Shown here: piece by piece, positions 4,407 through 35,134 of the stretch
Numbering within the stretch: position 1 is the first letter of the stretch
How the letters are laid out: every line of letters begins with the position of its first letter
Assembly: GCA_045126855.1 (NCBI GenBank)
Contig: JBGVPG010000019.1
Coordinates: 5,061-69,060, forward strand
Source of the DNA: Eubacteriales bacterium
Lineage (GTDB): Bacteria > Bacillota > Clostridia > Oscillospirales > CAG-272
DNA length: 64,000 nucleotides
Reading direction: 5' to 3'
Notes under the pieces: generated by a model
Database searches by the model: none
Seen by the model: only the letters and a program-made list of their open reading frames with translations
Told to the model about the DNA's origin: nothing
Program-made: the position numbers and the translations under genes

Positions 4407-5693
4407 TTAGTCGATAGATGCAAGGGCTGCCGCAAGGTCCTCGATAAGGTCATCGGCAGACTCAATTCCGCAGGAATAGCGGATAAGGTCGGGGGATACG
4501 CCTGCGGCACGAAGCTCGTCGTCGTTCATCTGTCTGTGGGTTGCGCTTGCAGGGTGGAGACAGCAGGTGCGTGCGTCGGCAACGTGTGTCTCGATAGCAC
4601 CGAGAGTCATATTCTTCATAAACTTCTCAGCAGCGGCACGTCCGCCCTTTACTCCGAAGGAAACCACACCGCAGGAGCCGTTGGGAAGATATTTCTTAGC
4701 AAGCTCGTGGAACTCGTCGCCATCAAGGTCGGGATATTTTACCCAGGTAACGTTGGGGTGGGTCTGAAGGAACTTGGCAACCTTCAGGGCATTTTCACAA
4801 TGGCGTGCCATTCTCACGTGCAGGCTCTCGAGTCCGAGACCGAGAAGGAATGCCGACTGAGGAGACTGGGTGCAGCCAAAGTCACGCATAAGCTGTGCGG
4901 TCGCCTTGGTGATAAACGCACCCTCAAGGCCGAATTTGTCAACGTAGGTAACGCCGTGATAGCTGTCGTCGGGGGTGCAGAGGCCGGGGAATTTGCCCGA
5001 TGCTCGCCAGTCAAACTTACCCGAATCAACGATACAGCCGCCAACAGCAGAGCCGTGACCGTCCATATACTTGGTGGTGGAATGGGTCACGATATCGGCG
5101 CCCCACTCGATGGGACGACAGTTGATGGGAGTTGCGAAGGTGTTGTCAATAATAAGCGGAACGCCGTGGCGATGAGCCACCTTAGCGTAAAGCTCGATAT
5201 CAAGAACGCAGAGGGCGGGGTTGGCAATGGTCTCGCCGAACACAGCCTTGGTGTTGGGTCGCATAGCCGCCTCCAGCTCCTCCTCGGTGCAGTTGGGAGC
5301 AACGAAGGTGAACTCAACGCCCATACGCTTCATTGTAACCGCAAAGAGGTTGTAGCTTCCGCCGTAGATCGCAGAGGAGGAAACCACGTGGTCACCCTGA
5401 GAGGCGATGTTGAAAACAGCAAAGAAGTTCGCCGCCTGACCCGAGGAGGTCAGCATTGCGGCAGAACCGCCCTCAAGGGCGCAGATGCGAGCCGCAACGG
5501 TGTCGCAGGTAGGGTTCTGCAGACGGGAGTAGAAGTAGCCCGACGCCTCAAGGTCGAAGAGCTTACCCATATCCTCGCTGGTGGAATATTTGAAAGTAGT
5601 GCTCTGTACGATAGGGATCTGTCTCGGCTCACCGTTTCCGGGAGTGTAGCCACCCTGCACGCACTTTGTTTCGATTCTTAAATCCTTTTTCAT
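4407..5693 (-). CDS. metY: O-acetylhomoserine aminocarboxypropyltransferase/cysteine synthase
   Basis: YSRLQNPT, SSGQAA, DNTFATP, HSTTKY (PLP lysine), HPASATHRQ. Confidence 0.93.
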   Translation of the reverse strand: MKKDLRIETKCVQGGYTPGNGEPRQIPIVQSTTFKYSTSEDMGKLFDLEASGYFYSRLQNPTCDTVAARICALEGGSAAMLTSSGQAANFFAVFNIASQGDHVVSSSAIYGGSYNLFAVTMKRMGVEFTFVAPNCTEEELEAAMRPNTKAVFGETIANPALCVLDIELYAKVAHRHGVPLIIDNTFATPINCRPIEWGADIVTHSTTKYMDGHGSAVGGCIVDSGKFDWRASGKFPGLCTPDDSYHGVTYVDKFGLEGAFITKATAQLMRDFGCTQSPQSAFLLGLGLESLHVRMARHCENALKVAKFLQTHPNVTWVKYPDLDGDEFHELAKKYLPNGSCGVVSFGVKGGRAAAEKFMKNMTLGAIETHVADARTCCLHPASATHRQMNDDELRAAGVSPDLIRYSCGIESADDLIEDLAAALASID

Positions 5694-20125: not shown

Positions 20126-22978
20126 TTATCTCGCCTGTTCCTCCATAATGAAGGCCTCGAGAGTATCGCCCTCACGGATATCGTTGAACTTCTCGATACC
20201 AACGCCGCACTCATAACCCGAGTTAACTTCACGAACGTCGTCCTTGAAACGGCGGAGAGAGGAGATCTTATCCTCAAAGATCACGATACCGTCACGAACG
20301 ATACGGATCTGAGCATTTCTGGTGATCTTACCGTCCTGGATGTAGCATCCTGCGATAATACCAACGCCGGGAACCTTGATGGTCTGGCGAACCTCGGCGT
20401 GACCAAGGAGAACCTCCTTGAACTCAGGTGCAAGCAGACCCTTCATAGCCGCCTCGACCTCATCGATGATCTCATAGATGATACGGTGAGTACGGATATC
20501 GACCTTGTTTCTCTCTGCGGAGTCGAGAGCGTTTCTGTCGGGACGAACGTTGAAGCCGCAGATGATAGCGTTGGAAGCTGCCGCAAGCATAACGTCGCTC
20601 TCGGTGATACCACCTACCGCAGAGTGAATAACGGAAACCTTAACCTCCTCGTTAGAGAGCTTGATAAGAGACGCCTTAACAGCCTCAACAGAGCCTGCAA
20701 CGTCAGCCTTAACTACGATATTAAGAGTCTGAACGCCTGCTGCGATCTGACCGAAGAGCTCGTCAAGATTAACTCTGGAGTTAGCCTGGAGAATTTCCTG
20801 ACGGAGTCTTTCCTTTCTCTGCTCTGCAAGATCTCTTGCCATTCTCTCGTTTTCAACCGCATTAAGCTCATCGCCTGCCTGAGGAACGTCGTCAAGACCG
20901 ATGATCTCAACGGGAACCGAGGGACCTGCAGTCTTTACGGTCTTGCCCTTATCGTCAACCATTGCACGAACTCTACCAACGGCGTTACCTACGATAACGT
21001 AGTCGCCCTGGTGGAGGGTACCGTTCTGAACGAGAACGGTTGCAACGGGACCACGGCCCTTGTCAAGCTTGGACTCGATAACGAGACCTGCCGCACGGCG
21101 CTTGGGATTTGCACGAAGCTCCTTAACCTCGGCAACGAGGAGAACGTTCTCAAGAAGGTCCTCGATACCCATCTTGGTGTGAGCAGAACAGGGCACGCAG
21201 ATAACGTCGCCGCCCCATGCCTCGGGAACAAGCTCGTACTGTGTAAGCTGGTTAAGCACGTTGTCGGGATTTGCGGTGGGCTTATCCATCTTATTAATTG
21301 CTACGATAATATCAATGCCTGCCGCCTTTGCGTGGTTAATAGCCTCGATGGTCTGAGGCATTACGCCGTCATCGGCAGCTACTACGAGGATCGCAATATC
21401 GGTGGACTTAGCACCTCTCATACGCATTGCGGTGAACGCCTCGTGACCGGGGGTGTCAAGGAAGGTGATATCCTTGCCGTTTGCCTTTACTCTGTAAGCA
21501 CCGATCGCCTGAGTAATACCGCCAGCCTCACCACGGGTAACGTTGGTGTGTCTGATAGCGTCAAGAATAGAGGTCTTACCGTGGTCAACGTGACCCATAA
21601 CGCAAACTACGGGTGCACGCTCGAGGAGATCCTCCTCGCTGTCCTCCGCCTCGGTAAAGAGCTTTTCCTCAATGGTGACAACGACCTCCTTGGTAACCTT
21701 AACGCCAAACTCGTCGGCGATAAGCTCTGCGGTGCCGTAGTCAATAAGGTCGTTAAGGCCCTTCATCTCGCCCATGAACATGAGCTTCTTGATAACCTCA
21801 GCGGCGGTCTTCTTCATTCTGGTTGCAAGCTCGGAAACGGTGATTTCCTCGGGAACTGTGATTTCGAGCTGCTTATTTCTCGCACGCTCTGCCTCAAGCT
21901 TCTTGATCTTTTCCTGAGCCGCTCTTTCCTTATCCTTAGCGCTCTTCTGATTCTGTCCACGGTTATCCTGCTTCTTCAGCTTCTGCTTCTGAGCCTTGGA
22001 GTCACCGCCGTTAAGAATGGAATAGTAATGGTCGTTGTATCTTTCGTTGTACTTGTCAAGGTTAACGTCGTGAGTTCTGGTATCAACGATACGGGTCTTG
22101 GGAGCCGCCTCGTTAACGTACTCAACGCCAACGTTTACACCGCCCTTGACATTCTGGTTTACGGTAGGAGTGAGGGTCTTGAACTGCTGCTTCTGAGCCT
22201 TCTTCTCCTCCTTCTTCTGCTTAGGCTGCTGTACGGGAGCCGCTGCCTTCTGCGCCTGTGCCTGCTGCTTTTCAAGCGCCGCCTTCTGTGCAGGAAGAAC
22301 TACTGGCTGCTTCGCCTCAACCTTAGGTGCAGGCTGCTGAACCGCAGGCTTAGCTGCAGGAGCCTGAGGCTTCTGCACGGGCTTTTCTCCGGGCTTCTGC
22401 CAGGAGGAATTGGGGTTGCGAAGGCCCTGAGCCTGTCTGTTCATATTGTCGTGCTTCTTAGCAAAGGGATTCTCCTGAGGAGCTGCGCTGTACTTATTGT
22501 AAGCAGGCTTTCTGTCGTCACGGGCAGGGCGCTCGGGACGCTGATCCCTTCTGTCATTTCTCTGCTGATTATTCTGTACCTGCTGAGGCTTGCGCTCGGT
22601 CTGCTGAGGCTGAGGCTTGCGCTCGGTCTGCTGAGGCTGGGGCTTGGGCTGAGGCTTGGGTGCCTCGGGTGCCTTGGGCTCGGGCTTTGCCTCCACCTTG
22701 ACCTCGGGCTTTTCCTCCTTAGGTGCAGGTGTGGGAGCAGGCTTTTCCTTCTTTTCCTCAACGCTCTTGATGGTCACACGACCCTCTCTGTAAGCGTCAA
22801 GGTCCTTGATCTGGTGCTTTGCGGTAAGGGTGGCAAAGAAGAGCTCAAACTCATCCTTGTCAGCGCTTCCGCCGCTCTTCTTCTCAATACCGAGATCCTT
22901 GAAGGCGTCAAGCACGTCCTTGCTCTTTATGTTGAAATCCTTAGAAATCTGAGTCAGTTTGATAGGTAAATTGGGCAT
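20126..22978 (-). CDS. infB: Translation initiation factor IF-2
   Basis: [30 protein letters not shown]; long P/Q/K-rich N-terminal linker. Confidence 0.98.
22582..22639. repeat. 27-bp tandem duplication inside infB (KPQPQQTER x2)
   Basis: gctgaggcttgcgctcggtctgctgag occurs twice back to back. Confidence 0.85.
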
Positions 22979-25435: not shown

Positions 25436-25493
25436 CATTGTGAAGGGGCTGTCACTTTCGCGACAGCCCCATAAAACACTATTTACTGTATGT

Positions 25494-25522
25494 ATTATAT
25501 CACAGTATTTCAGAAAATGCAA
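25494..25522 (-). promoter_or_regulatory. Sigma-A promoter for the rimP-nusA-infB operon
   Basis: TTGCAT-17 nt-TATAAT with extended TG. Confidence 0.65.
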
Positions 25523-25554
25523 TAGATTTTCTAAAATTTATTCAGAAAGGGAAA

Positions 25555-25761
25555 TTATGCCTTGAAGTCGTTGGGCGCCTTGCCAACCTTTGCCTTACGT
25601 CTAGCAAGCTTTCTGAGGCCGGTAGCCTTAGCATACTTCTTCATAAGCTTTTCCATTTCCTTCTTGAGAGCAAGTCTCTCCTTCTCGAGCTTTGCAGCCA
25701 TCTCTGCGCGAGTCTTTACGCTTTCGGTCTGCTCAAGAGATGCGGACTTTCTTTTAGCCAT
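25555..25761 (-). CDS. Small, very basic helical protein (68 aa)
   Basis: GGAGG RBS, codon bias like its neighbours, K/R/A-rich. Confidence 0.75.
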   Translation of the reverse strand: MAKRKSASLEQTESVKTRAEMAAKLEKERLALKKEMEKLMKKYAKATGLRKLARRKAKVGKAPNDFKA

Positions 25762-25780: not shown

Positions 25781-25912
25781 TTATTTAATAAATTGATTCA
25801 TCAAAGAACTAATATCCCCGTTCTGCTCGATGAAATAAAGCAGAAGGAGTCCGGCTCCAATTGAGAGCAATAGCAGGTAAAGTGCTATCCACCACATGGT
25901 GTTAGTTGACTT
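25781..25912 (-). CDS. In-frame transmembrane extension of the upstream ORF (or 38-aa membrane peptide from ATG 25897)
   Basis: KSTNTMWWIALYLLLLSIGAGLLLLYFIEQNGDISSLMNQFIK* in the same frame directly after TGA 25913-25915. Confidence 0.6.
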   Translation of the reverse strand, partial: KSTNTMWWIALYLLLLSIGAGLLLLYFIEQNGDISSLMNQFIK

Positions 25913-27487
25913 TCAAGCGCGGTGCTTGATCTTCTTAATTACCCAGTTGATGTCCTTAGTGTTCTGGTTGATGAGTCTCTTTGTGGTCTGAACGTCCTTA
26001 CGAAGAGCTCTCTTCTCCTTGCCGTTCTTGTACTCCTTGGTCTTAAGGCGGTACTTAGCAAGAGAAAGGTTAGAGGATGCCTCTACGCTGCTGTTAAGGA
26101 TGCCGTAAAGTCTCTGCTTCTCGCCACTGGATGCGGGGAGACGGAAGATCTTCTTAGCGAGGCTCTTGTTCTTTCTTACGAACTTCTCAGCTGCGTCAGA
26201 TCTGATCTGGCGCCACTTGTTGTTGATGCTTACGCCGTCAAGGGTAACCTCAGAGCCATTGTAGATGGAAAGAAGCTTGGAGTTAAGCTCATCTCTCTTG
26301 TTAAGGAGAGTCATCATCTCGGTACGGAGAGATGCGATCTTAATTCTGTCTGCACGACGCTTCTTGGTCTTCATGGTTACGGGATCGTTGGTGATAACTG
26401 CGTAGTAACGAGCGTTATCCTTCTCCTCATACTTGATAGCTGCCTTGTGAGCCTTCTGAAGAGCCTTGATCTTCTTGTTAGCAAGCTTCTTAACCTTCTT
26501 AACGTCAAATACGTTCTTACCGAATCTGTAGTAGCTGATGTCCTTCTCAGACTCGATGTTGGCAATCTTGTAATCGTAACCCTTGGTGAGAACCGAGAGA
26601 TCCTTGTTAGCCTGCTCAGCGATCTTCTCCTCAAGAGCGGACTTCTGAACTGCCTTCTTGGACTTCTTAGCGTGCTGCTTCTTAGCCTTTGCTGCCTCAA
26701 CTGCGGAAGCTGCGGAAGCTGCTACTGCTGCAACGTCAGCGTCGCTGTTTCTAGCGGAGCCGTCGTTAGCGGTGTAAGAAATTGCGGGAATGGGAGCGTA
26801 GGGCTTGTTAGCAAGGATGTCAGCGGGGATATCCTCGGAAGCGCGGGTGAGCTTAGCTCTGGTGAGTACCTCGTACTCGTCAACGAGTGCGTTGTAACCC
26901 TTGATCTCATTGAGAAGAGCCTTCTTGAGGGACTTAACCTTCTTGGTCTCCTCAAGCTTGTGGCAAACGTGAAGGTTCTCAGCAAGTCTCTCGATAACGT
27001 ATCTCTGATAAGTGAGACAGTTGATGATGAGAAGCACCTTGTTGTAGCCCTCAGCGCCGTTCTTCTGCTCAACGGTTGCTGCGAGTCTGGTCTTTACGTT
27101 GTTAAGTGCCTTGTCGCTCTTAGCGAGGTACTTCTTGAGCTCCTTCTTGTCAAGGATGCTGATGTTAGCGTTGTATGCGCTAACGGTTGCGGATGCGGGA
27201 GCGCCTACGGCGTCAATGCCATAGTTGTTAGAACCTGCAAGGATCTCTGCGGGAAGACCGTAAGAAACCTCTGCTGCCTTCTCGCCGGAAGCCTTGTTGT
27301 AGTTGCTAACGAGAGAATTGTATCTCTTGATCTGGTCCTTGAGGTCCTTTGCGACCTTCTTAGCGCCCTTCTTGTCACCGCTGTCACGGCAAGCTGCAAG
27401 GTCGTCGCAGAATTCAACGAGAATCTGCTTCTCCACAGCAATGCTTTCAACAAGAAGTTCTACCCTGTTCTGCTGCTTTTTACTCAT
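25913..27487 (-). CDS. Lys-rich helical hypothetical protein (524 aa) with two 'YN' repeats
   Basis: RBS GAAGGAG before MSKKQQ; strong codon bias; repeats shared with the upstream giant protein. Confidence 0.85.
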   Translation of the reverse strand: MSKKQQNRVELLVESIAVEKQILVEFCDDLAACRDSGDKKGAKKVAKDLKDQIKRYNSLVSNYNKASGEKAAEVSYGLPAEILAGSNNYGIDAVGAPASATVSAYNANISILDKKELKKYLAKSDKALNNVKTRLAATVEQKNGAEGYNKVLLIINCLTYQRYVIERLAENLHVCHKLEETKKVKSLKKALLNEIKGYNALVDEYEVLTRAKLTRASEDIPADILANKPYAPIPAISYTANDGSARNSDADVAAVAASAASAVEAAKAKKQHAKKSKKAVQKSALEEKIAEQANKDLSVLTKGYDYKIANIESEKDISYYRFGKNVFDVKKVKKLANKKIKALQKAHKAAIKYEEKDNARYYAVITNDPVTMKTKKRRADRIKIASLRTEMMTLLNKRDELNSKLLSIYNGSEVTLDGVSINNKWRQIRSDAAEKFVRKNKSLAKKIFRLPASSGEKQRLYGILNSSVEASSNLSLAKYRLKTKEYKNGKEKRALRKDVQTTKRLINQNTKDINWVIKKIKHRA

Positions 27488-27585
27488 TTTCTTCTCCTTC
27501 TGGGGGCTTGGTACAGCCCCCATCAAATTTATATTTTTTTGTTAATTATTTTGAGTAGTTAGTAAAGATGTGACACATGCTCTTC

Positions 27586-30500
27586 TTAGGAGACCTTCAC
27601 ACCGTTCTCAATGAGAACATCAATGAGCTTACGGCCATACTTGCCGCCAAGCTGATCAACTATTTCACCGAGATTTTTGGAAAGCTCATTTACTTCGCTC
27701 TTGGGGATCTCGAATCCTGCGCAAGCAAGCGCAAATTCACGCTTGAGCTCAAGACGCTCGCCCTCACCGGGCTTGTCGCTCTTTCTTGCATAAGCAATAA
27801 GCGTCTGCATGGGAGCGTGGAGTGCCTCGGATGCTGCTCTGTTCGCCTCAGCGCTGAGGTCGATTGCGTTGATCGCCTTTACGGTCTGATCAACGAGATC
27901 ACCGTACTGAGCAAGGCTATAAGCTCTGCCGCCCGAGAAGATCATGTCGTCTGCCGCAAGAACGCCGATGATTCTACGGCTGTCTCTACCGCCAAGCTGG
28001 TCAACAACCTTGATAACATTTCTTGCGAAGATTTCCTTCTTCTCATTGCTGATGTCAAATCTGTTAATACCTTCAATAAGATCACGCTTGAGCTCGTATC
28101 TCTCGTTCTGAGTAGGTCTGATCTCGGTCTGAACGAAGTGGATCAGCTTTTTCATTGCGATCTGGATAAGATCAACTGCAACCTGATTGTCGGTTCCGTC
28201 GATATTGATGCCGTTGATAACCTGATTGATCTCCTCAACCATATTACCAAGCTCTCTGTCGTTAAGGGTCTTGCAACGCTCGTGTTTGTCAACTCTCTCA
28301 ACGATCTCTCTTACGTAAACAAAGTTCTGAAGCTCGGAGAGCTCGTGTCTCTGACCGGAGGTCAGCTTGTCAAGAAGAGCGGTGATCTCGATAGACTTGA
28401 TCGGAACACGAAGAACCTCGCTGTAAACCTCAATACGCTTGTTATAATCGTTTACGGTAGCGATAAGGATCTTCTTTGCACGGTTGGATCTGGGCTTAAC
28501 GCGAACGTTCTCGCACGCGAGAAGGAGCTTGTGCTGCTCGTTTACGAAGCAGTCAAGGATCGCACCGTAGCGGTGACGCTCAATGTCTCTTGCACCGTAT
28601 CTGATAAGCCAGATGTTTCTGGTGAGAAGAAGAACAACGCTTGCGAGGAACATCACGATATCGTATACGAATCTGATCGCAACGAAGATGATGGGAAGTG
28701 CAGCCCAGATAATACCGATTGCTGCAATAGCCTGAAGCGCACTGTTAACACCGAGGAAGATACCCGCGATAGCGATGATCAGTGCAAAGGCGAGAGTAAC
28801 GATCCAATAAATGGTGTGGTCAACTCTGAGACCTCTGTAGATCAGCTGACGGATACGCATGTTGTAATCGATGCGGAAGTTACGGGCCAGATACTGACGA
28901 AGAACCTTATGTACTCTTGCCTGATACTTGATAGGATCGGAGGCAACGCCAACTGCACGAAGAGTGTTCTTGTTGTAACGTCTCATGCTTCTCGCCTTCT
29001 CGTAACGGATACGGTAGTGGCGGTTTTCGTTTTCCTGGCGTCTCATAGCGGTTCTTACGATTCTCTTGTTGAGAATCTTTACTACCAGAGCGTGGATTCT
29101 CTCCTGCTTATTAAGCTCGAGTCTATCCTGACGTCTGTCAGCAGCCTTATGCTTGCCCTTTTCTCTGAGAGCGGCGATCTTTGCCTTTGCTCTCTTATTA
29201 TCATTGTAGTAAATCTTGCGGAGTCTACGTACCCATGCAGAAACTCTGAGGTTACGAAGGAACTTAAAGAGCTTACCCGGCAGGCTGAGTATCATACCGA
29301 AGAGCGAGTCGTTGATATCCTTCTCAACGTCGTACTCCTTGATTCTATCTGCACTCTCAAGAGCGTACTCAACGAGCTTGTGATAGATCTCGTCGGTGTA
29401 GATAGGAGCCTTGTTGTCATCAATCTTAACTCTGTTACGAAGACTGAGAACGGGAGGTACAGGAGGTCTGTCGGTCTTTCTGTACTTAATTGTGTCGGGA
29501 ATATTGAGAGACAGAAGCTCAAGGTGCTCGTAACGAGCCTTGCCCTTGTTGTACTGTCTAACGAAATCGTTGTAACGCTGAATATCGTCGTGAAGCCATG
29601 CGCTCCAGAGTCTCTGAGATCTTCTTACGCCGGTCTTAACCGCGGAATAGTATCTCTTGCACTCGATGTCGATAATGCCGCCGAGCTTTGCGATAATTCT
29701 GAGAAGCTCCTTATCGCTGTGCTTAACGCGTCTGTTAACGACCTCAACGAATTCATCGGTGGGAGGAAGAAGTGCACGAAGGAAGCCCTGGCTTCTGAGA
29801 AGAAGTCTTCTCATAATGCGCACGTTGATCTCGCTACCAACCAGCTTCCACCAGTTTGCAACGTTATCAATGGAGGTCATGCTTCTTGCTCTGAGAGCTC
29901 TTGCAAATCTCTCCTCAATCATCTTGGTCTCAAGGTCAAGAGGAGTCTCAACCTCAATACCGGAGTGAAGGTCCTTAGCATCCTCCTCAGCCTCATCGGT
30001 GTATCTGGCGTCAACGCCTCTCTTCTGAATACCGGAGAAGGGATCGGTCGTGTTAGCCGCACCGAGGATGAGAGAATCCTGGTCGTATCTTCCGGAGTCA
30101 AGAACGATAGCACCGTCGGTGCCGGTAAGCATCATAGGAGTACCGGTGAAGGGAATGCTGGTCTCGCCGGAAGCATTGAATCCGATAAGAGGTACGCCAC
30201 CGGGAGTCATACCCAGAATGGTCATACCGTCGAAGTCAGCCTTGAGGAAGGGAACGCCCATATCGGTTGCATAACCCATAGCGCCAACAGACATTACAGG
30301 TGCATTGCCGTCGCCTGCCTTAGAGCCGGTAGTGCCGGTGTAGAGGCCGTAACCGTGCCATCTGTCACCAACGGTTCTCTCACGACCGTTAATGGTCTCG
30401 ATAACCTCTCTGCAGCATACGATCTCGGGGAACTTGATAAGGTGACCGTATCTGATGATCTCATCAGCAACGGTGGTGGAAACCTCCGCGAACTTAACGC

Positions 30501-33500
30501 CGATCATATCACTGAGCTTACGAGCAGTATTGTTGTGAGCGGTGATAGCATCAACGAACTTCTTCTTATATCTGACGAGAACGTTGCGTGTGAAGGTGAT
30601 TCTACCGTAGTTACGGTACTTAATAAGCACCTTGTTGATACCCGAAAGTCTCTCTCTCTCAAGAACGAGACGCTCAAGGAGAAGTCTTGCGGCATTTCTC
30701 TCGGTGCAGTCACGCATATAGCGGACTTTAAGTCTGTAAACCTTACGGCTGTATTTTGCGTTAATTCTGTAAAGCTTCTTCTGATATTCCTTACCGTGGC
30801 GGTCAGACTCGTGAACAACAGTCTCAAGGTTGAGGATCTTAGCGGTGTGCTCCTCGTTGAGGCGCTTCAGCTTGAGCTCAAATCTTGCATTCTTCCTGTC
30901 GTTTCTGTTCTGTCTGCCCTGAAGTCCACTCTTAGAGAACAACAGCGATTCGTCGACGAACCAGATCTCGATGTTGGTGCAAACTCTGTGCCACCAAGCA
31001 ACGATGGGCTGTGTCCAAACGAAGAGGTGCTGCCAGAATCCAATGGGATGCCACCAGTTGGTTGCAGGCATCTCGTCGGTCATAACGTCGAAGACGAAGG
31101 GAGAGTTGATAACGGTTGTTTCAACCGAACGGTTCTCGGTAAGTCTGTAGTGCTGCATCAGAAGGGGCGTATAAATGCCCGAGCGCCACAGTCTGGGCTT
31201 CTCATAAGTAGAATCCTTGAGGGGATCCTTGGGGAATACCTCTATGTAGTTATCCTTATATGTGATAACGGGAATTCTGAGCTGCTCTGCAGAATTGATA
31301 AGCTCCTTGGCGGTAGCAAGAGGAATTCTGGAGAACTGCTCGCCAACGATTGACATATAGTCGATCGCACGGCCGTTATAGAGATCAATATTCTTGTAAA
31401 GTGCTCTTGCATTGCTTCTTGCAAGGTCCTGACGGTTAAGTCTCTTGGCAACCGAGATACAAATGCGTCTTACCTCAATGAGGTTAGAGATAACTCTGAG
31501 GTTCTCAACGAGAGCGGTTACAACGCCGTGCTCGTCGAAGGCCTTAGAGATCGCACGCTCGGTTCTGCGGAGTGCTCTCTTGAAGAACTTGATAGCCTTC
31601 TCGCACTTAACCTCGAACTGGTCGAACTCGTCTGCGGTGAGAACGAGATCTGCAGAATCTCTGAGAGACTCAAGCATAACTGCCGCAACGGCAGATGCTC
31701 TGTCAACCATAGCGGATTCGGGAGAAAGAGAGGTTGTGCTCTTGAGCTTGTTGCTCTTCTCAAGAATCTTTGCAGATGTCTCTGCATACGCCTCAAGATC
31801 GGGATCGATATCCGAGCAAACAGCCATGCTGATAACCTTGGAGCTCTGTCCAACGGTCTCAATAAGCTCACGCTTATACGCTACAGCAGGGAATACGATC
31901 TCGCTGCTGCGACAAGCCTGCTCAATAATACCTGCAGGAAGAAGGTCAAGGTCGATGCCAACGGTTGCGGAGCAACGCTTTGCAGCATTGTTATACTCGG
32001 TAACTGCGTTAGCGAAGAACTTTTCTGCTACCTTTTTCTGGCTGTAACGGCCCTTGCGGTATACGTTACGGAGATACTCGTAAGCAAGAACAAGCTTTTC
32101 TCTCTCGAGAGCAAATCTCGCAACCTCAAGACGGATAGCGGTTCTCTCGAAGGCGCTTGCAGCCTTTGCAGTGCTGATGCCTGCAAGTCTCTTACCGTAC
32201 TTGATATTAATCTTGAATACTCTGTTCTTATATTCATCAGTAGCGCGCTCGTTGATAGGAGTTCTCATTTCGAGAGCATCAAGCTCGCTCTGGTATCTCT
32301 TAGCAAGAAGCTGAGTCTCAGCTATCTGCTTTTCGATACGGGTAGCCTCACGCTGAACCTTCTTGGTTGCACGTCTGATCTTGCGACCATAGGATGCGCA
32401 GCCTGCCTTGGAACGGGGAGGCTTGATATTGAGAAGGAGATCGTCTGCGCCGATCACGGGAGTGATAACGGTGGTAGATGCCGCCTCTTCAGCGGTAAGC
32501 TCCTCATCGGGGAATACCTGTACGTAGCTTTCGTCAAAGCTAAGCTCGGGGATCACGCCAAGCGACTTGCCCGAAGCGATATTCTCGGGAAGGAAGACGG
32601 AAAGTCTTGTAAGCTGCTCACCTGTGATCGAGGAGTAGGAAATAACGTAATCGTTATATCTGTCGATCTCGCAGTGCAGAGCCTTACGGGCTTCCTTGTA
32701 ATAGGTGTAAGCCTTTACTCTTACGTAGTTCTCAAGGTTGTTACATCTGACCTCAAGAAGCTTGCCGCAAATCTTAATAATTCCGGCAAGAATAACGGGT
32801 GTTTCCTTTTCATCACGGTTTGCCTCAAGTGCCTTCTGGCCTGTCTTGAGAGCACCCTCAAGGTTCTTGATAGCCTCCTTGCTATGCTTCGCATAGATCT
32901 TGAGACTGTCCTCGCTGTTTGTCAGCTTTTCACCCTCAGCCTTAATGGCCGAAACAACCTCGTCGTGGATTACGAGATCCTCGGGGTCGATCACTACAGG
33001 ATCGTCCTCAAACACCTCTTCCTCTTCGGCTTCCTCGCCCTCGCTATCACTCTCGGGTTCGGTCGCTTCATCGGACTCTTCCGATTCGTCAGCGGTCTCT
33101 TCTGCGATCTCCTCGGCTGTCTCTTCAGCAGGTGCTTCAGCAGTCTCTTCAGCAGCTTCCTCGGCGGTCTCTTCAACCGTCTCCTCCGCAACCTCATAAG
33201 CTACCTCTTCGTCCGTCTGCTCGAGAACCTCCTCGGTCTCCTCGCTCTCCGTTTCGCCGACCTCTTCGGTTGTCTCCTCGGAAAGTTCCTCTTGTGCCTC
33301 GGCTGCCTCAGCCTCAGCCTCCTCGGTCTCTGCTACGGGCTCTTCAGCCTCGGGCTCGACCTGAGTCTCGGATTCTTCCGGTTCAGTATTCAATGGCTCT
33401 TCAACAGTTGCCTCAGGTTCGGAATTTACGGTCTCTTCGATCGCTGCTTCCTCAGCCTCAACAGACTTTTCCATCTGCTCGGTTTCCTGATTTTCAGGCT

Positions 33501-33534
33501 CCTGCATAGGCATATTTTTTTCCTTGTCTGCCAT
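27586..33534 (-). CDS. Giant hypothetical membrane protein (1982 aa): acidic N-tail, six 'YN' repeats, TM hairpin, duplicated C-terminal domain
   Basis: Long ORF with genome-typical codon usage; TAATG overlap with the CBS gene; no recognisable catalytic motif. Confidence 0.9.
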   Translation of the reverse strand: MADKEKNMPMQEPENQETEQMEKSVEAEEAAIEETVNSEPEATVEEPLNTEPEESETQVEPEAEEPVAETEEAEAEAAEAQEELSEETTEEVGETESEETEEVLEQTDEEVAYEVAEETVEETAEEAAEETAEAPAEETAEEIAEETADESEESDEATEPESDSEGEEAEEEEVFEDDPVVIDPEDLVIHDEVVSAIKAEGEKLTNSEDSLKIYAKHSKEAIKNLEGALKTGQKALEANRDEKETPVILAGIIKICGKLLEVRCNNLENYVRVKAYTYYKEARKALHCEIDRYNDYVISYSSITGEQLTRLSVFLPENIASGKSLGVIPELSFDESYVQVFPDEELTAEEAASTTVITPVIGADDLLLNIKPPRSKAGCASYGRKIRRATKKVQREATRIEKQIAETQLLAKRYQSELDALEMRTPINERATDEYKNRVFKINIKYGKRLAGISTAKAASAFERTAIRLEVARFALEREKLVLAYEYLRNVYRKGRYSQKKVAEKFFANAVTEYNNAAKRCSATVGIDLDLLPAGIIEQACRSSEIVFPAVAYKRELIETVGQSSKVISMAVCSDIDPDLEAYAETSAKILEKSNKLKSTTSLSPESAMVDRASAVAAVMLESLRDSADLVLTADEFDQFEVKCEKAIKFFKRALRRTERAISKAFDEHGVVTALVENLRVISNLIEVRRICISVAKRLNRQDLARSNARALYKNIDLYNGRAIDYMSIVGEQFSRIPLATAKELINSAEQLRIPVITYKDNYIEVFPKDPLKDSTYEKPRLWRSGIYTPLLMQHYRLTENRSVETTVINSPFVFDVMTDEMPATNWWHPIGFWQHLFVWTQPIVAWWHRVCTNIEIWFVDESLLFSKSGLQGRQNRNDRKNARFELKLKRLNEEHTAKILNLETVVHESDRHGKEYQKKLYRINAKYSRKVYRLKVRYMRDCTERNAARLLLERLVLERERLSGINKVLIKYRNYGRITFTRNVLVRYKKKFVDAITAHNNTARKLSDMIGVKFAEVSTTVADEIIRYGHLIKFPEIVCCREVIETINGRERTVGDRWHGYGLYTGTTGSKAGDGNAPVMSVGAMGYATDMGVPFLKADFDGMTILGMTPGGVPLIGFNASGETSIPFTGTPMMLTGTDGAIVLDSGRYDQDSLILGAANTTDPFSGIQKRGVDARYTDEAEEDAKDLHSGIEVETPLDLETKMIEERFARALRARSMTSIDNVANWWKLVGSEINVRIMRRLLLRSQGFLRALLPPTDEFVEVVNRRVKHSDKELLRIIAKLGGIIDIECKRYYSAVKTGVRRSQRLWSAWLHDDIQRYNDFVRQYNKGKARYEHLELLSLNIPDTIKYRKTDRPPVPPVLSLRNRVKIDDNKAPIYTDEIYHKLVEYALESADRIKEYDVEKDINDSLFGMILSLPGKLFKFLRNLRVSAWVRRLRKIYYNDNKRAKAKIAALREKGKHKAADRRQDRLELNKQERIHALVVKILNKRIVRTAMRRQENENRHYRIRYEKARSMRRYNKNTLRAVGVASDPIKYQARVHKVLRQYLARNFRIDYNMRIRQLIYRGLRVDHTIYWIVTLAFALIIAIAGIFLGVNSALQAIAAIGIIWAALPIIFVAIRFVYDIVMFLASVVLLLTRNIWLIRYGARDIERHRYGAILDCFVNEQHKLLLACENVRVKPRSNRAKKILIATVNDYNKRIEVYSEVLRVPIKSIEITALLDKLTSGQRHELSELQNFVYVREIVERVDKHERCKTLNDRELGNMVEEINQVINGINIDGTDNQVAVDLIQIAMKKLIHFVQTEIRPTQNERYELKRDLIEGINRFDISNEKKEIFARNVIKVVDQLGGRDSRRIIGVLAADDMIFSGGRAYSLAQYGDLVDQTVKAINAIDLSAEANRAASEALHAPMQTLIAYARKSDKPGEGERLELKREFALACAGFEIPKSEVNELSKNLGEIVDQLGGKYGRKLIDVLIENGVKVS

Positions 33535-33956
33535 TAATTACCCCCCTTTTCATGTTTTTTATAATTATTAAATAAAAAATTCAATATATCCCTACGTAAT
33601 ATAATCCCGATAAAGCATCCCCGATCATCAACGACGGGAACGAAATTGTGCTCGCCGACCCGTTGTATCAGCTCATCCATCGAGGCGTAGTGGTAAAGCG
33701 GCGGAGAATACTTCCTATCAAGTATCTCGGTCACGCAATTCCTCTCTGCCACTCTGGTGTCGAAGCTGCCGTTATCAAAGAAATACGCGAAAATATCATC
33801 GTTACGAAGCGTACCAACGTACTTGCCCTCACCGTCTATAACAGGAATAGCAACGTACCTGTGGAAACGCATTTTTTCAAGCGCCTGTCGGACGGTCTGG
33901 TCCGTGGTTACGTATTCAACCAGGCTCTTGGGTACAACAAATCGCATTATGTTCAT
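33534..33956 (-). CDS. Stand-alone CBS-pair protein (YkuL/CbpB-like)
   Basis: RQALEKM...YVAIPVIDGEGKYVGTL and FVPVVDDRGCFIGII. Confidence 0.9.
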   Translation of the reverse strand: MNIMRFVVPKSLVEYVTTDQTVRQALEKMRFHRYVAIPVIDGEGKYVGTLRNDDIFAYFFDNGSFDTRVAERNCVTEILDRKYSPPLYHYASMDELIQRVGEHNFVPVVDDRGCFIGIILRRDILNFLFNNYKKHEKGGN

Positions 33957-34810
33957 TTCTCACCCCACCGCATTCCGATCATTGCCGCGCCGATGGCAGT
34001 AGCGAATCTCGAACGCTCCGGAATCAGGAAGTTCAGTCCCCTTCCGACCTCGAGGTGATTAAATTCTTCAAATTTGCGTTTGCAGTGCGAAAGTCTTGTT
34101 ATGTTACCGGTAAGAATTATGTCCTTAACCCCAACCGATCTTGCCGCGAAAATGGATACCATTCCGACGGTTTCAAAGACGAGATTCATTATTCCAAGTG
34201 CAATATCGTCCTTGCTTGCAATATCCGAAAGCTTGCCGAAATTGGCAGCTGTCAAATCCGCCTCCAGCGTCTCTATCGAATTGGAGGCTGTCATATCCTT
34301 GATCTTCAGATCAACGTTATCAAGGCTTCCGGACTCGGCAAAATTCTCAATATGAGAAATCGTATCCGCATTCAGAAGCAGTCTCGAAAGACCCATCAGC
34401 GTGCCGCCGCCAACGCCGGTTCCGCCAAGGTATTTCATTCTTCCGTCTGCCATGGCGTGAACCATAGCAGTTCCCGTTCCCATGCTGACGACCAACGCCT
34501 CCGAAAGTCCGGATAGGTAGGTTCCGCCTCTGCCAATGCTGTCGAACTCAGCGACCCTCTGGCATTTCAGCCCGTAAAGGCTGTTTTTAACGTGGGAGGC
34601 ACCCACGCCTGTCATCATAACCTTCGAGATATCCGATATAGCCAGATTGTTCTCGTCGGTAAACTTTCCAAACGCGCCGTAGGTAGAGGTCACGGGGTCG
34701 TTGGCTTTGACGATCTGCGGCTCGATAAGCTCCCATTCCTTACCCTTAGCAGAAAATCCCACAATTTTCGTGCTGCTGCCACCGATGTCGATTCCGATTA
34801 CAACGCTCAT
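33953..34810 (-). CDS. coaW: Type II pantothenate kinase (CoaW-like)
   Basis: IGIDIGGSSTK, TGVGA, SMGTGT, GGTGVGGGTL, TAANFGK. Confidence 0.85.
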   Translation of the reverse strand: MSVVIGIDIGGSSTKIVGFSAKGKEWELIEPQIVKANDPVTSTYGAFGKFTDENNLAISDISKVMMTGVGASHVKNSLYGLKCQRVAEFDSIGRGGTYLSGLSEALVVSMGTGTAMVHAMADGRMKYLGGTGVGGGTLMGLSRLLLNADTISHIENFAESGSLDNVDLKIKDMTASNSIETLEADLTAANFGKLSDIASKDDIALGIMNLVFETVGMVSIFAARSVGVKDIILTGNITRLSHCKRKFEEFNHLEVGRGLNFLIPERSRFATAIGAAMIGMRWGEK

Positions 34811-35134
34811 ACCTCGTACCACCCTTCAGAAAGAGAAAATGCTTGAATTGATTTGTTTTTAATCATTTTAGCACCCCTTTCTTTATATAGATAATACGCG
34901 TATAATTATGAATTCACAGACACATTATAGCACAGCCCTTTTCTTTTTTCAATAGAAAAAGAATAATTTTTTTAATTTTTCGTTAACTTTGTGAATAATG
35001 CCGAAAATTTTTGGCGTTTTACCGAATCATATATAGATGATTCTTGAAATTTTGCGAAGGAAATGTTATAATATATCCGAACCGTATCGGTTTTTCAACC
35101 TAGGCATAGACTACAATAAACGAAAGGATGAACT

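Follow-up and report, generated by a model that had tools for sequence, protein, structure and literature searches.

The YN module, a new domain in a split, genus-specific protein with a conserved in-frame TGA before a putative membrane anchor

Two adjacent genes, one encoding a giant protein of 1982 amino acids (P0001) and the other its 524-aa neighbor (P0002), share a repeated module in a bacterium of the order Oscillospirales, and the shorter gene stops at a TGA codon that is followed in frame by codons for a hydrophobic helix. What this pair of proteins is, how the two genes came to stand side by side, and whether the TGA is the only end of P0002 are the questions that this locus raises. 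The genes lie in a window of 64,000 nucleotides (positions 5,061 to 69,060 of contig JBGVPG010000019.1, assembly GCA_045126855.1; GTDB lineage CAG-272) from a genome, G000, whose assembly is 93% complete with 7% unassembled. P0001 occupies 27586..33534 and ends in TAA, while P0002 (25913-27526) would have 537 residues if started at a TTG; its likely start is the ATG at 27487, which stands behind AAGGAGA and gives 524 aa. These and all other features described here lie on the reverse strand unless noted otherwise. An earlier interpretation made without database searches (the sequence-only reading) had placed both open reading frames (ORFs) correctly and had proposed that they encode paralogous subunits of an abundant membrane-attached scaffold or cytoskeletal polymer, an interpretation that our analysis partly supported. 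New beyond it are the fused ancestors of the pair, its strict synteny, a range limited to one genus in spite of extreme divergence, an anchor at the C-terminus of family members, the TGA that stands in frame ahead of the anchor of P0002, and a conserved downstream gene for a basic protein of 68 aa.

The sequence-only reading had noticed a helix motif recurring six times in P0001 and twice in P0002, mostly followed by a P-x-hydrophobic-x-Y strand. All eight motifs (P0001 residues 289, 510, 715, 996, 1317 and 1693; P0002 residues 65 and 207 in the 537-aa numbering) and all five of the strands that it quoted were found in place, and all eight copies of the module, which is about 125 residues long, proved significant at those sites. 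A hidden Markov model (HMM) built from alignment A1 (residues 200-345 of 21 P0001 orthologues), which is a profile independent of the other copies, matched P0001 at 635-769 (1e-22) and 1268-1354 (1e-7) and P0002 at 126-252 (1e-15) and 10-99 (6e-10), with weak matches in P0001 at 486-559 (0.07), 985-1028 (0.45) and 1677-1707 (0.1). A family-wide HMM, made from 172 non-redundant copies among 403 significant copies in 259 proteins, recognized P0001 copies 1 to 6 at 2e-38, 2e-9, 5e-22, 6e-11, 2e-8 and 4e-5 and the P0002 copies at 4e-25 and 6e-37; orthologous copies formed part of the training set of this model. The match to copy 6 (1664-1716) is partial and the least certain of the eight. The weak copies 2 and 4 gained support from a genome search, in which P0001 aligned with itself (871-1052 with about 393-566, E 2e-13; 707-772 with about 281-347, E 4e-7), and from a shared motif, ELVETVG, that comes after both of these divergent copies and likewise after the second module of relatives, which itself scores 3e-16 with the A1 profile. 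Conservation across the 172 copies was strong at a few positions: the asparagine of the YN pair was kept in 171, the tyrosine in 163, the late proline in 152 and the glycine of a TG pair in 145. The consensus consists of a K-rich helix, a variable turn, a hydrophobic helix and a helix ending in YN..V.EY..TGE.LT, which is followed by ..I..G..y..iP.i.Y. The YN repeat is a real new domain.

Along P0001, the modules comprise residues 208-335 (module 1, 32530..32913, canonical), 429-555 (module 2, 31870..32250, of the divergent type, with ELIETVG after it), 634-761 (module 3, 31252..31635, canonical), 911-1042 (module 4, 30409..30804, divergent, with HN replacing YN), 1265-1365 (module 5, 29440..29742, lacking the N-terminal part of the module) and 1656-1732 (module 6, 28339..28569, partial and the weakest). 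The coding part of P0002 from its ATG (25916..27487) holds YN-a (27215-27487, truncated at its N-terminus) and YN-b (26768-27148), then an Ala/Lys linker that leads to the basic C-domain (25916-26632, net charge +32), and P0002 as a whole has a pI of 9.8 and a net charge of +45.

That the repeat had gone unrecognized, as the sequence-only reading supposed, agrees with our searches, in which no characterized family matched P0001 or P0002. Pfam and NCBIfam gave only chance matches to the two proteins (E of at least 0.13; for Pfam, two of them at E<=1), and Pfam gave nothing for nine mid-size and three giant relatives except one sub-threshold match to a transmembrane (TM) tail; when 25 single modules were searched against Pfam at E<=10, no family was matched by more than two of them. 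PADLOC and PHROGs had no match, and three profile searches of PDB sequences (with alignments A1, A2 and A3) returned nothing significant, the best being a designed protein at 8e-4. The top PDB-profile matches, none of them significant, were to designed helical bundles, the syntaxin Habc domain and vinculin, and they fit a helical-bundle fold short of demonstrating one; the YN module may well be such a bundle. A spectrin-repeat profile did not match the YN proteins or modules. LemA (PF04011) resembles the module in having a helix with ...YN..V..YN..., which we confirmed in LemA sequences of relatives, and has an N-terminal anchor. It was rejected as a relative, as hhalign gave a probability of 1.6% and neither P0001, P0002 nor G000 had a PF04011 match. 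The YN module constitutes a new protein domain that has no detectable relatives and is represented by over 400 copies across 318 representative clusters, and the top literature matches listed included no paper on the YN family or on a bacterial anchor added by readthrough.

The relationship between the two genes became clear from three genomes of the same genus that have a single protein at the same locus: G226 (1714 aa), G206 (1672 aa) and G225 (1460 aa). The N-terminal parts of these proteins match P0001 residues 143-726 at 22-35% identity, with E values as low as 3e-26; their C-terminal parts match the entire P0002 (E 2e-86, 5e-58 and 8e-29, respectively), and each finishes with a TM helix. 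Because these fused relatives match both proteins at the same locus, P0001 and P0002 are two halves of one gene. The suggestion that they are paralogous subunits was therefore right as to their relatedness, but the two are pieces of a gene that is single in these relatives. On this comparison, the gene pair of the window is the split form of the gene for a genus-specific tail-anchored protein. With the split in the window's clade, the N-terminal part, P0001, expanded to six modules and has a TM hairpin inside it, and the C-terminal part, P0002, retained two modules along with the C-domain.

A search of word-indexed proteins, in which 8000 candidates of 1090-3469 aa were scored, yielded 97 homologues of P0001, of which 96 were 43-99% identical across most of the length and one was 27% identical; the sole name that the source gave to any of them was 'hypothetical protein [Oscillospiraceae bacterium]'. 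All 19 loci found in reference genomes were from metagenome-assembled genomes of uncultured Oscillospiraceae, Eubacteriales or Clostridia, with isolate names mentioning animal gut sites in three cases and a fecal source in one. The wider family was collected with an exhaustive profile search using the P0002 alignment (A2), which found 318 representative clusters at E<=1e-3 and 280 at E<=1e-10. Its members range from 758 to 6671 aa and carry one to eight YN modules, with one to four in the single proteins that same-genus relatives have at this locus. Most commonly the protein has 800-1200 aa, in which a basic coiled N-region and an acidic linker precede a single YN module, and a C-domain of basic character, marked by the motifs EDNxRYY and LLNxRD, leads to the C-terminal TM helix. 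A hydrophobic segment ended within the last 45 residues of 132 of 150 family representatives, and the N-termini were acidic or polar, with no signal peptide, as expected of C-tail-anchored proteins. P0002 itself fits this class only if its TGA is read through.

The taxonomic range of the repeat, which the sequence-only reading had suggested mapping with an HMM, was confined to one genus. Relatives were present in 112 of 212 other species of the genus, or 113 of 213 genomes including G000, and in 29 of 74 high-quality genomes, and were found in none of the 393 genomes outside the genus in a sample of the family and none of the 398 genomes in a sample from elsewhere in the class, with two genomes not scored. 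The viral contigs searched contained no relative either, and a phage origin was rejected on this basis. Within the genus, the position of the gene was constant: it is preceded by a gene for a type II pantothenate kinase-like protein and one for a CBS-pair protein, and followed by a gene for a 68-aa basic protein and by rimP, nusA, the gene for an L7Ae protein and infB. Both flanks (kinase and/or CBS upstream, rimP-nusA downstream) were seen in 11 of the 14 genomes sampled for synteny, and one flank was seen in the other three, two of which were at contig ends and the third of which (G230) had no rimP match in the sequence fetched. Neighboring genes were 55-95% identical among relatives (NusA, 76-95%), whereas the P0002-like part was 62-79% identical inside the window's clade and 21-35% identical outside it. 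The YN gene diverges far faster than its neighbors, at a fixed locus.

We then asked what lies behind the stop codon of P0002. The TGA (25913..25915) stands in a conserved context, CGY-GYT-TGA-AGG (AAG in the window), and is followed by 43 in-frame codons (25784..25912) that encode a TM helix, KSTNTMWWIALYLLLLSIGAGLLLLYF..., before a TAA at 25781-25783. This helix corresponds to the C-terminal tail anchor of the fused relatives. Among the 17 split loci (the window and 16 others with a separate P0002-type gene), 13 had the TGA and 41-50 stop-free in-frame codons encoding the helix, starting with a conserved R.D.TFWW that the hydrophobic helix follows. The helix was joined without any stop in the separate P0002-type genes of G882 and G973, which are older split forms, and in most fused forms. 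Contigs from RNA runs X10 and X16 had no differences across the TGA, and the four differences in the contig of RNA run X18 appear to be elsewhere, so that the TGA is present in transcripts. When substitution rates were estimated by pairwise Nei-Gojobori comparison of related sequences, rather than with a tree-based model, the helix codons had a dN/dS of 0.35 in frame, with a saturated dS of about 1.2, and the other two frames gave 0.60 and 2.56. The four remaining loci ended in TAA, and there the frame was shut after 0-21 codons and no helix was left; since the helix was lost from them, these loci serve as an internal control for a stop other than TGA. The TGA of P0002 is conserved, and the anchor encoded in frame after it is under selection; an extension conserved past the stop and under purifying selection in 13 of 17 loci is what stop-codon readthrough would leave.

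One way to explain such an extension is that the TGA is an ordinary nonsense mutation, with the anchor decaying behind it and the downstream frame surviving only by recent common descent. The complete loss of the helix from the four related TAA loci would fit this, as would the kinship of the TGA loci and the poor codon usage of the extension. However, the saturated dS and the low dN/dS of the helix do not look like decay; the 41-50 codons were free of stops and frameshifts in all 13 loci, when the other two frames mostly closed after 0-24 codons, and the identity of P0002 among these loci fell to 62-65%, so that their divergence is not recent. We consider a simple nonsense mutation very unlikely.

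It is also possible that P0002 is purely soluble and that the hydrophobic ORF past the TGA gives a micro-protein of its own, from an independent start or through re-initiation following termination, which perhaps recruits P0002 non-covalently. An ATG occurs six codons past the TGA in the window and two codons past it in loci L018 and L016, the sequence TGA-AGG includes a weak purine-rich stretch, and this family has undergone one gene fission already. However, 10 of the 13 loci had no ATG, GTG or TTG ahead of the helix, the conserved F-W-W and the preceding R.D.T would fall upstream of any internal start, the ORF was in the frame of P0002 in 13 of 13 loci, and it was gone where the stop was TAA, which makes this explanation unlikely.

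That the TGA is a sense codon, read as selenocysteine or through a reassigned code (tables 4/25), is extremely improbable, despite the conservation of the in-frame TGA in 13 loci. In G000, TGA works as a normal stop: 212 of the 1022 long ORFs close with it, and the genome encodes release factor 2 (RF2; prfB, 494.7 bits, above the cut-off). P0001, for its part, spans 1982 codons without a TGA. Nothing in G000 scored above the cut-off for SelB, and ARAGORN found no tRNA-Sec and no tRNA with a UCA anticodon in the 93% complete assembly. There was also no conserved hairpin or selenocysteine insertion sequence after the TGA (consensus energy, -0.14 kcal/mol; 0 covarying pairs). As a side observation, prfB in G000 (C4:1139-2185) is one uninterrupted frame of 387 aa that aligns with model positions 5-353, and the programmed +1 frameshift site that this gene usually has, in-frame UGA included, may therefore be absent.

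We considered next which tRNA could read a leaky UGA. The only tRNA-Trp(CCA) detected in G000, outside the window at C6:7690-7765, has C27 and U43 unpaired, leaving four base pairs in the anticodon stem and a 7-nt loop, and it keeps A9 and G24 (numbered by hand from the ARAGORN output), in agreement with the Blastocrithidia-like form described in PMC13092985. According to that paper, about 6.5% of standard-code bacteria have only a tRNA-Trp with a 4-bp anticodon stem, and in E. coli a C27A variant, in which 27:43 is unpaired, increased readthrough of UGA by a factor of about 2.5, with the effect of a 4-bp tRNA-Trp at native expression levels still to be assessed. An identical tRNA-Trp was present in 29 other genomes of the genus among the matches listed, and of 16 more divergent copies in the genus seven had 4 bp and nine had 5 bp, the 5-bp group including genomes with 1700-aa fused forms (G226, G989, G894 and G983). 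Fifteen of the 17 split-gene genomes had the 4-bp form, and the other two had no assembled tRNA-Trp. We also counted backup stops in the ORFs of at least 200 aa in G000, a crude list that includes some antisense shadow ORFs: a second in-frame stop followed within three codons in 79 of 212 cases for TGA vs 157 of 738 for TAA (odds ratio 2.2, p = 6e-6). This excess fits a leaky UGA and selection against leakage from it.

From these observations, a tentative model can be drawn in which a leaky UGA, tolerated or enabled by the 4-bp tRNA-Trp, acts as a fixed-ratio switch that would divide an abundant protein between cytoplasmic and tail-anchored forms, and in which the YN module would have a new fold, from which a scaffold of 758-6671 residues, specific to the genus, is built beneath the membrane. 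Most ribosomes would stop at the TGA and release soluble P0002, and a fraction would insert an amino acid there, most likely Trp by means of the 4-bp-stem tRNA-Trp(CCA), to give tail-anchored P0002, so that the TGA would set the ratio of the free to the anchored protein. If the model is correct, readthrough controls the membrane anchoring of a bacterial protein encoded by a chromosomal gene. Readthrough that adds C-terminal targeting is known from the peroxisomal extensions of eukaryotic LDHB and MDH1, and the A1 protein of phage Qbeta is also extended by readthrough. Such systems resemble the putative readthrough of P0002 in having a conserved leaky stop, an in-frame extension under purifying selection and two isoforms per gene; P0002 differs from them in that readthrough would add a membrane anchor, and in that its gene is bacterial and chromosomal and lies in a genome whose one detected tRNA-Trp is of the 4-bp form. 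Conserved in-frame stops have been described in bacteria (PMC7918605), and the locus offers a natural test case both for whether such stops are functional and for whether a tRNA-Trp with a 4-bp anticodon stem gives meaningful UGA readthrough at native levels.

Several points weigh against readthrough. The 13 TGA loci are kin and probably go back to one origin, the codon adaptation index (CAI) of the extension is very low (0.27), and three of the 13 loci, the window included, have an ATG ahead of the helix, so that separate initiation could occur there. The lack of a conserved structure after the TGA belongs here as well. The 4-bp tRNA-Trp coexists with a directly fused anchor in at least seven genomes (G212, G227, G971, G230, G960, G882 and G973), and because fused-anchor genomes carry it too, it would be a permissive background at most, and the genomes compared for it are related, not independent samples; the count of backup stops is weakened by the shadow ORFs in its list. 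As RF2 is present and TGA ends so many long ORFs, readthrough would be a minority event. Lastly, readthrough and the two isoforms of P0002 are predictions.

Whether the proteins are abundant was addressed through codon usage and public RNA data. The claim that the codon bias resembles that of highly expressed genes was borne out: relative to the genes for EF-Tu, GroEL, enolase and RplB, the CAI was 0.83 for P0002, the same as for EF-Tu, 0.77 for the 68-aa protein, 0.75 for infB, 0.72 for nusA and 0.70 for P0001, as compared with 0.43 for the kinase gene and 0.35 for the CBS gene, both apparently in one operon with the YN genes, and 0.33-0.64 for 13 other genes of the window. Eight RNA runs from three studies contain the stretch, and contigs from three of these, one per study, span both genes with few differences. 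High expression of the YN genes fits this codon bias and the RNA-derived contigs. In RNA run X18, contig depths were 251 and 116 over P0002, 40-70 over the giant gene, about 15 over nusA and infB and 7.4 over rimP, and runs X10 and X16 trended the same way, with DNA run X5 flat at about 16-26. The greater depth over the YN genes than over nusA and infB is no more than a weak hint of abundance, as the runs were found by this very gene and contig depth in this data source cannot rank genes.

Taken with the family architecture, these results led us to favor, on evenly balanced grounds, a reading in which the gene pair encodes a split tail-anchored cytoplasmic protein that serves as an abundant membrane-tethered scaffold, with P0002 either free or anchored. 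The bulk of the YN protein would be cytoplasmic, because it has no signal peptide and basic residues precede the anchors, and P0001 and P0002 together would build a polyvalent scaffold, present in large amounts, against the inner side of the membrane. Judging from the strong positive charge close to the membrane, possible ligands are ribosomes, nucleic acid or acidic lipids. An abundant, fast-evolving and dispensable giant protein at a housekeeping locus of an uncultured ruminant-gut genus is of wider interest, in that lineage-specific 'dark' proteins of this kind are likely to shape cell architecture.

This reading has points against it too. The YN gene is dispensable, since three genomes lack it although the rest of the locus is intact: in G885 and G183 the CBS gene abuts rimP, and in G213 the kinase gene does so. 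G027 and G210 have other neighbors at the locus. The contig depths, limited as just described, do not properly order genes by expression, and the bundle fold of the module, its place in the cytoplasm and its role as a scaffold are all predictions.

EzrA, a division regulator of Firmicutes, offers a precedent, being a membrane-anchored cytoplasmic scaffold of linear, approximately 100-residue helical-bundle repeats (PMC4243239). The YN family is like it in its membrane-anchored cytoplasmic linear repeats, for which a bundle fold is only predicted here, but EzrA is conserved and of fixed length, whereas the YN family is restricted to one genus, spans 758-6671 aa and has its anchor at the C-terminus or internally. 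The anchor of EzrA is N-terminal, and P0001, P0002 and G000 had no match to its family, PF06160. Nesprins, giant tail-anchored spectrin-repeat proteins of eukaryotes (PMC3296292), have a similar architecture, in which a long linker of many helical repeats joins an N-terminal region for binding to a C-terminal TM anchor, and they too vary greatly in length. They are an analogy without homology, from a different domain of life and different membranes.

As a function for the YN proteins, tethering of ribosomes or the nucleoid is equally plausible. Ribosome-binding proteins with C-terminal tail anchors, YqjD, ElaB and YgaM, are described in bioRxiv 10.1101/2024.08.16.608256 and PMC6389858, the former of which treats C-tail-anchored ribosome inactivators. 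They share with the YN family an inner-membrane tail anchor, a basic or helical cytoplasmic part and the absence of a signal peptide, but have no YN modules. These proteins are about 100 aa long. A tether of this kind, rather than a structural scaffold or polymer, would account for the strongly basic C-domain beside the anchor, for the high net charge of P0002, for a codon bias like that of translation factors and for the position beside rimP-nusA-infB wherever both flanks are visible. However, adjacency to a housekeeping operon is no evidence of function, and no Pfam family matched, including DUF883 (PF05957), which had no match in P0001 or P0002 and only one, below the cut-off and elsewhere in the genome, in G000. 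That the family is strictly a tether of the YqjD type seems to us quite unlikely.

The filament favored by the sequence-only reading, in which P0001 and P0002 co-polymerize into a cytoskeleton-like structure beneath the membrane, has in its favor the repeated modules, the high predicted abundance and the membrane anchors. However, P0001 has no nucleotide-binding motif (the search for a Walker A motif found none, in agreement with that reading), and the proteins resemble no filament former. About half of the genus lacks the gene, as do some intact loci, and a nine-fold variation in length would be unusual for a lattice-forming protein. A co-polymer is accordingly improbable.

The remaining parts of P0001 were largely as the sequence-only reading had described them. 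The acidic, low-complexity N-tail (residues 1-190, 32965..33534) consists of 44% D+E, has a pI of 4.05 and accounts for all of the matches to P0001 that the family sample gave beyond the genus, in four genomes. The Trp-rich segment (residues 770-870, 30925..31227) has eight tryptophans and is very conserved among orthologues, with a maximum Kyte-Doolittle value of 0.64 that is too low for a TM helix. A Gly-rich stretch had also been noted correctly; it is a conserved Gly/Met/Pro/Thr-rich region at residues 1053-1200 (29935..30378). The hydrophobic region at residues 1571-1645 (28600..28824) is the candidate TM hairpin. We read it as two variable TM helices and a third segment that is conserved and has Arg at either end, and the positive-inside rule would put both ends of the hairpin in the cytoplasm. 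Such an internal hydrophobic region was present in 95 of 98 P0001-type proteins. Beyond the last YN module, a second repeat of about 100 aa that is unlike YN occurs twice (residues 1761-1859 and 1876-1974, 27613..28254); its copies are 30% identical (E 2e-19), and both end in VDQLGG(R/K)..R..I.VL.

Upstream, the start ATG of P0001 overlaps the TAA of the gene for the CBS-pair protein (TAATG), which encodes 140 aa (33534..33956) and lies immediately upstream. The type II pantothenate kinase-like gene (33953..34822; 232.7 bits vs a cut-off of 234) is the first of the apparent operon, and a promoter-like TTGAAA-17-TATAAT with a TG (34924..34952) is located upstream of it, by consensus match only.

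Downstream, the gene for the 68-aa basic protein (25555..25761) directly follows the YN gene, as it does in 23 genomes, the window included, for which sequence of this region was retrieved, and in every family sub-type examined. Its product carries the motif LE.ER..L..E.E.LM..YAKATG...R.K.G.APNDF and matched no family in Pfam-type, PADLOC or PHROGs searches. It probably belongs to the same system as the YN gene. Its resemblance to a miniature YN helix was not supported (hhalign probability of 2%). Between this gene and rimP, at 25440-25530, there is a promoter-like TTGCAT-17-TATAAT with a strong hairpin, GGGGCTGTC-GCGAAAGT-GACAGCCCC, and these elements are probably the promoter and leader of rimP-nusA-infB.

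Two other genomes had unusual genes at this locus. The orthologue in G230 (L045+L046, C140) has 6671 aa with just three recognizable YN modules and about 5000 unexplained residues between them, and there was no rimP match in the 9 kb fetched downstream. In G210 (L101, C4 1206-9014, reverse strand), which has no YN gene, a 2602-aa ORF with an N-terminal signal peptide precedes rimP. We rejected it as a YN relative, for it is secreted, unrelated and without a match to the YN profile.

Lastly, very long antisense open frames, of up to 1258 aa, were present on the forward strand of the window at 27577-31353, 31528-33537, 25922-27562 and 20399-22969. They run opposite P0001, P0002 and infB and are probably shadows of strong codon bias rather than genes.

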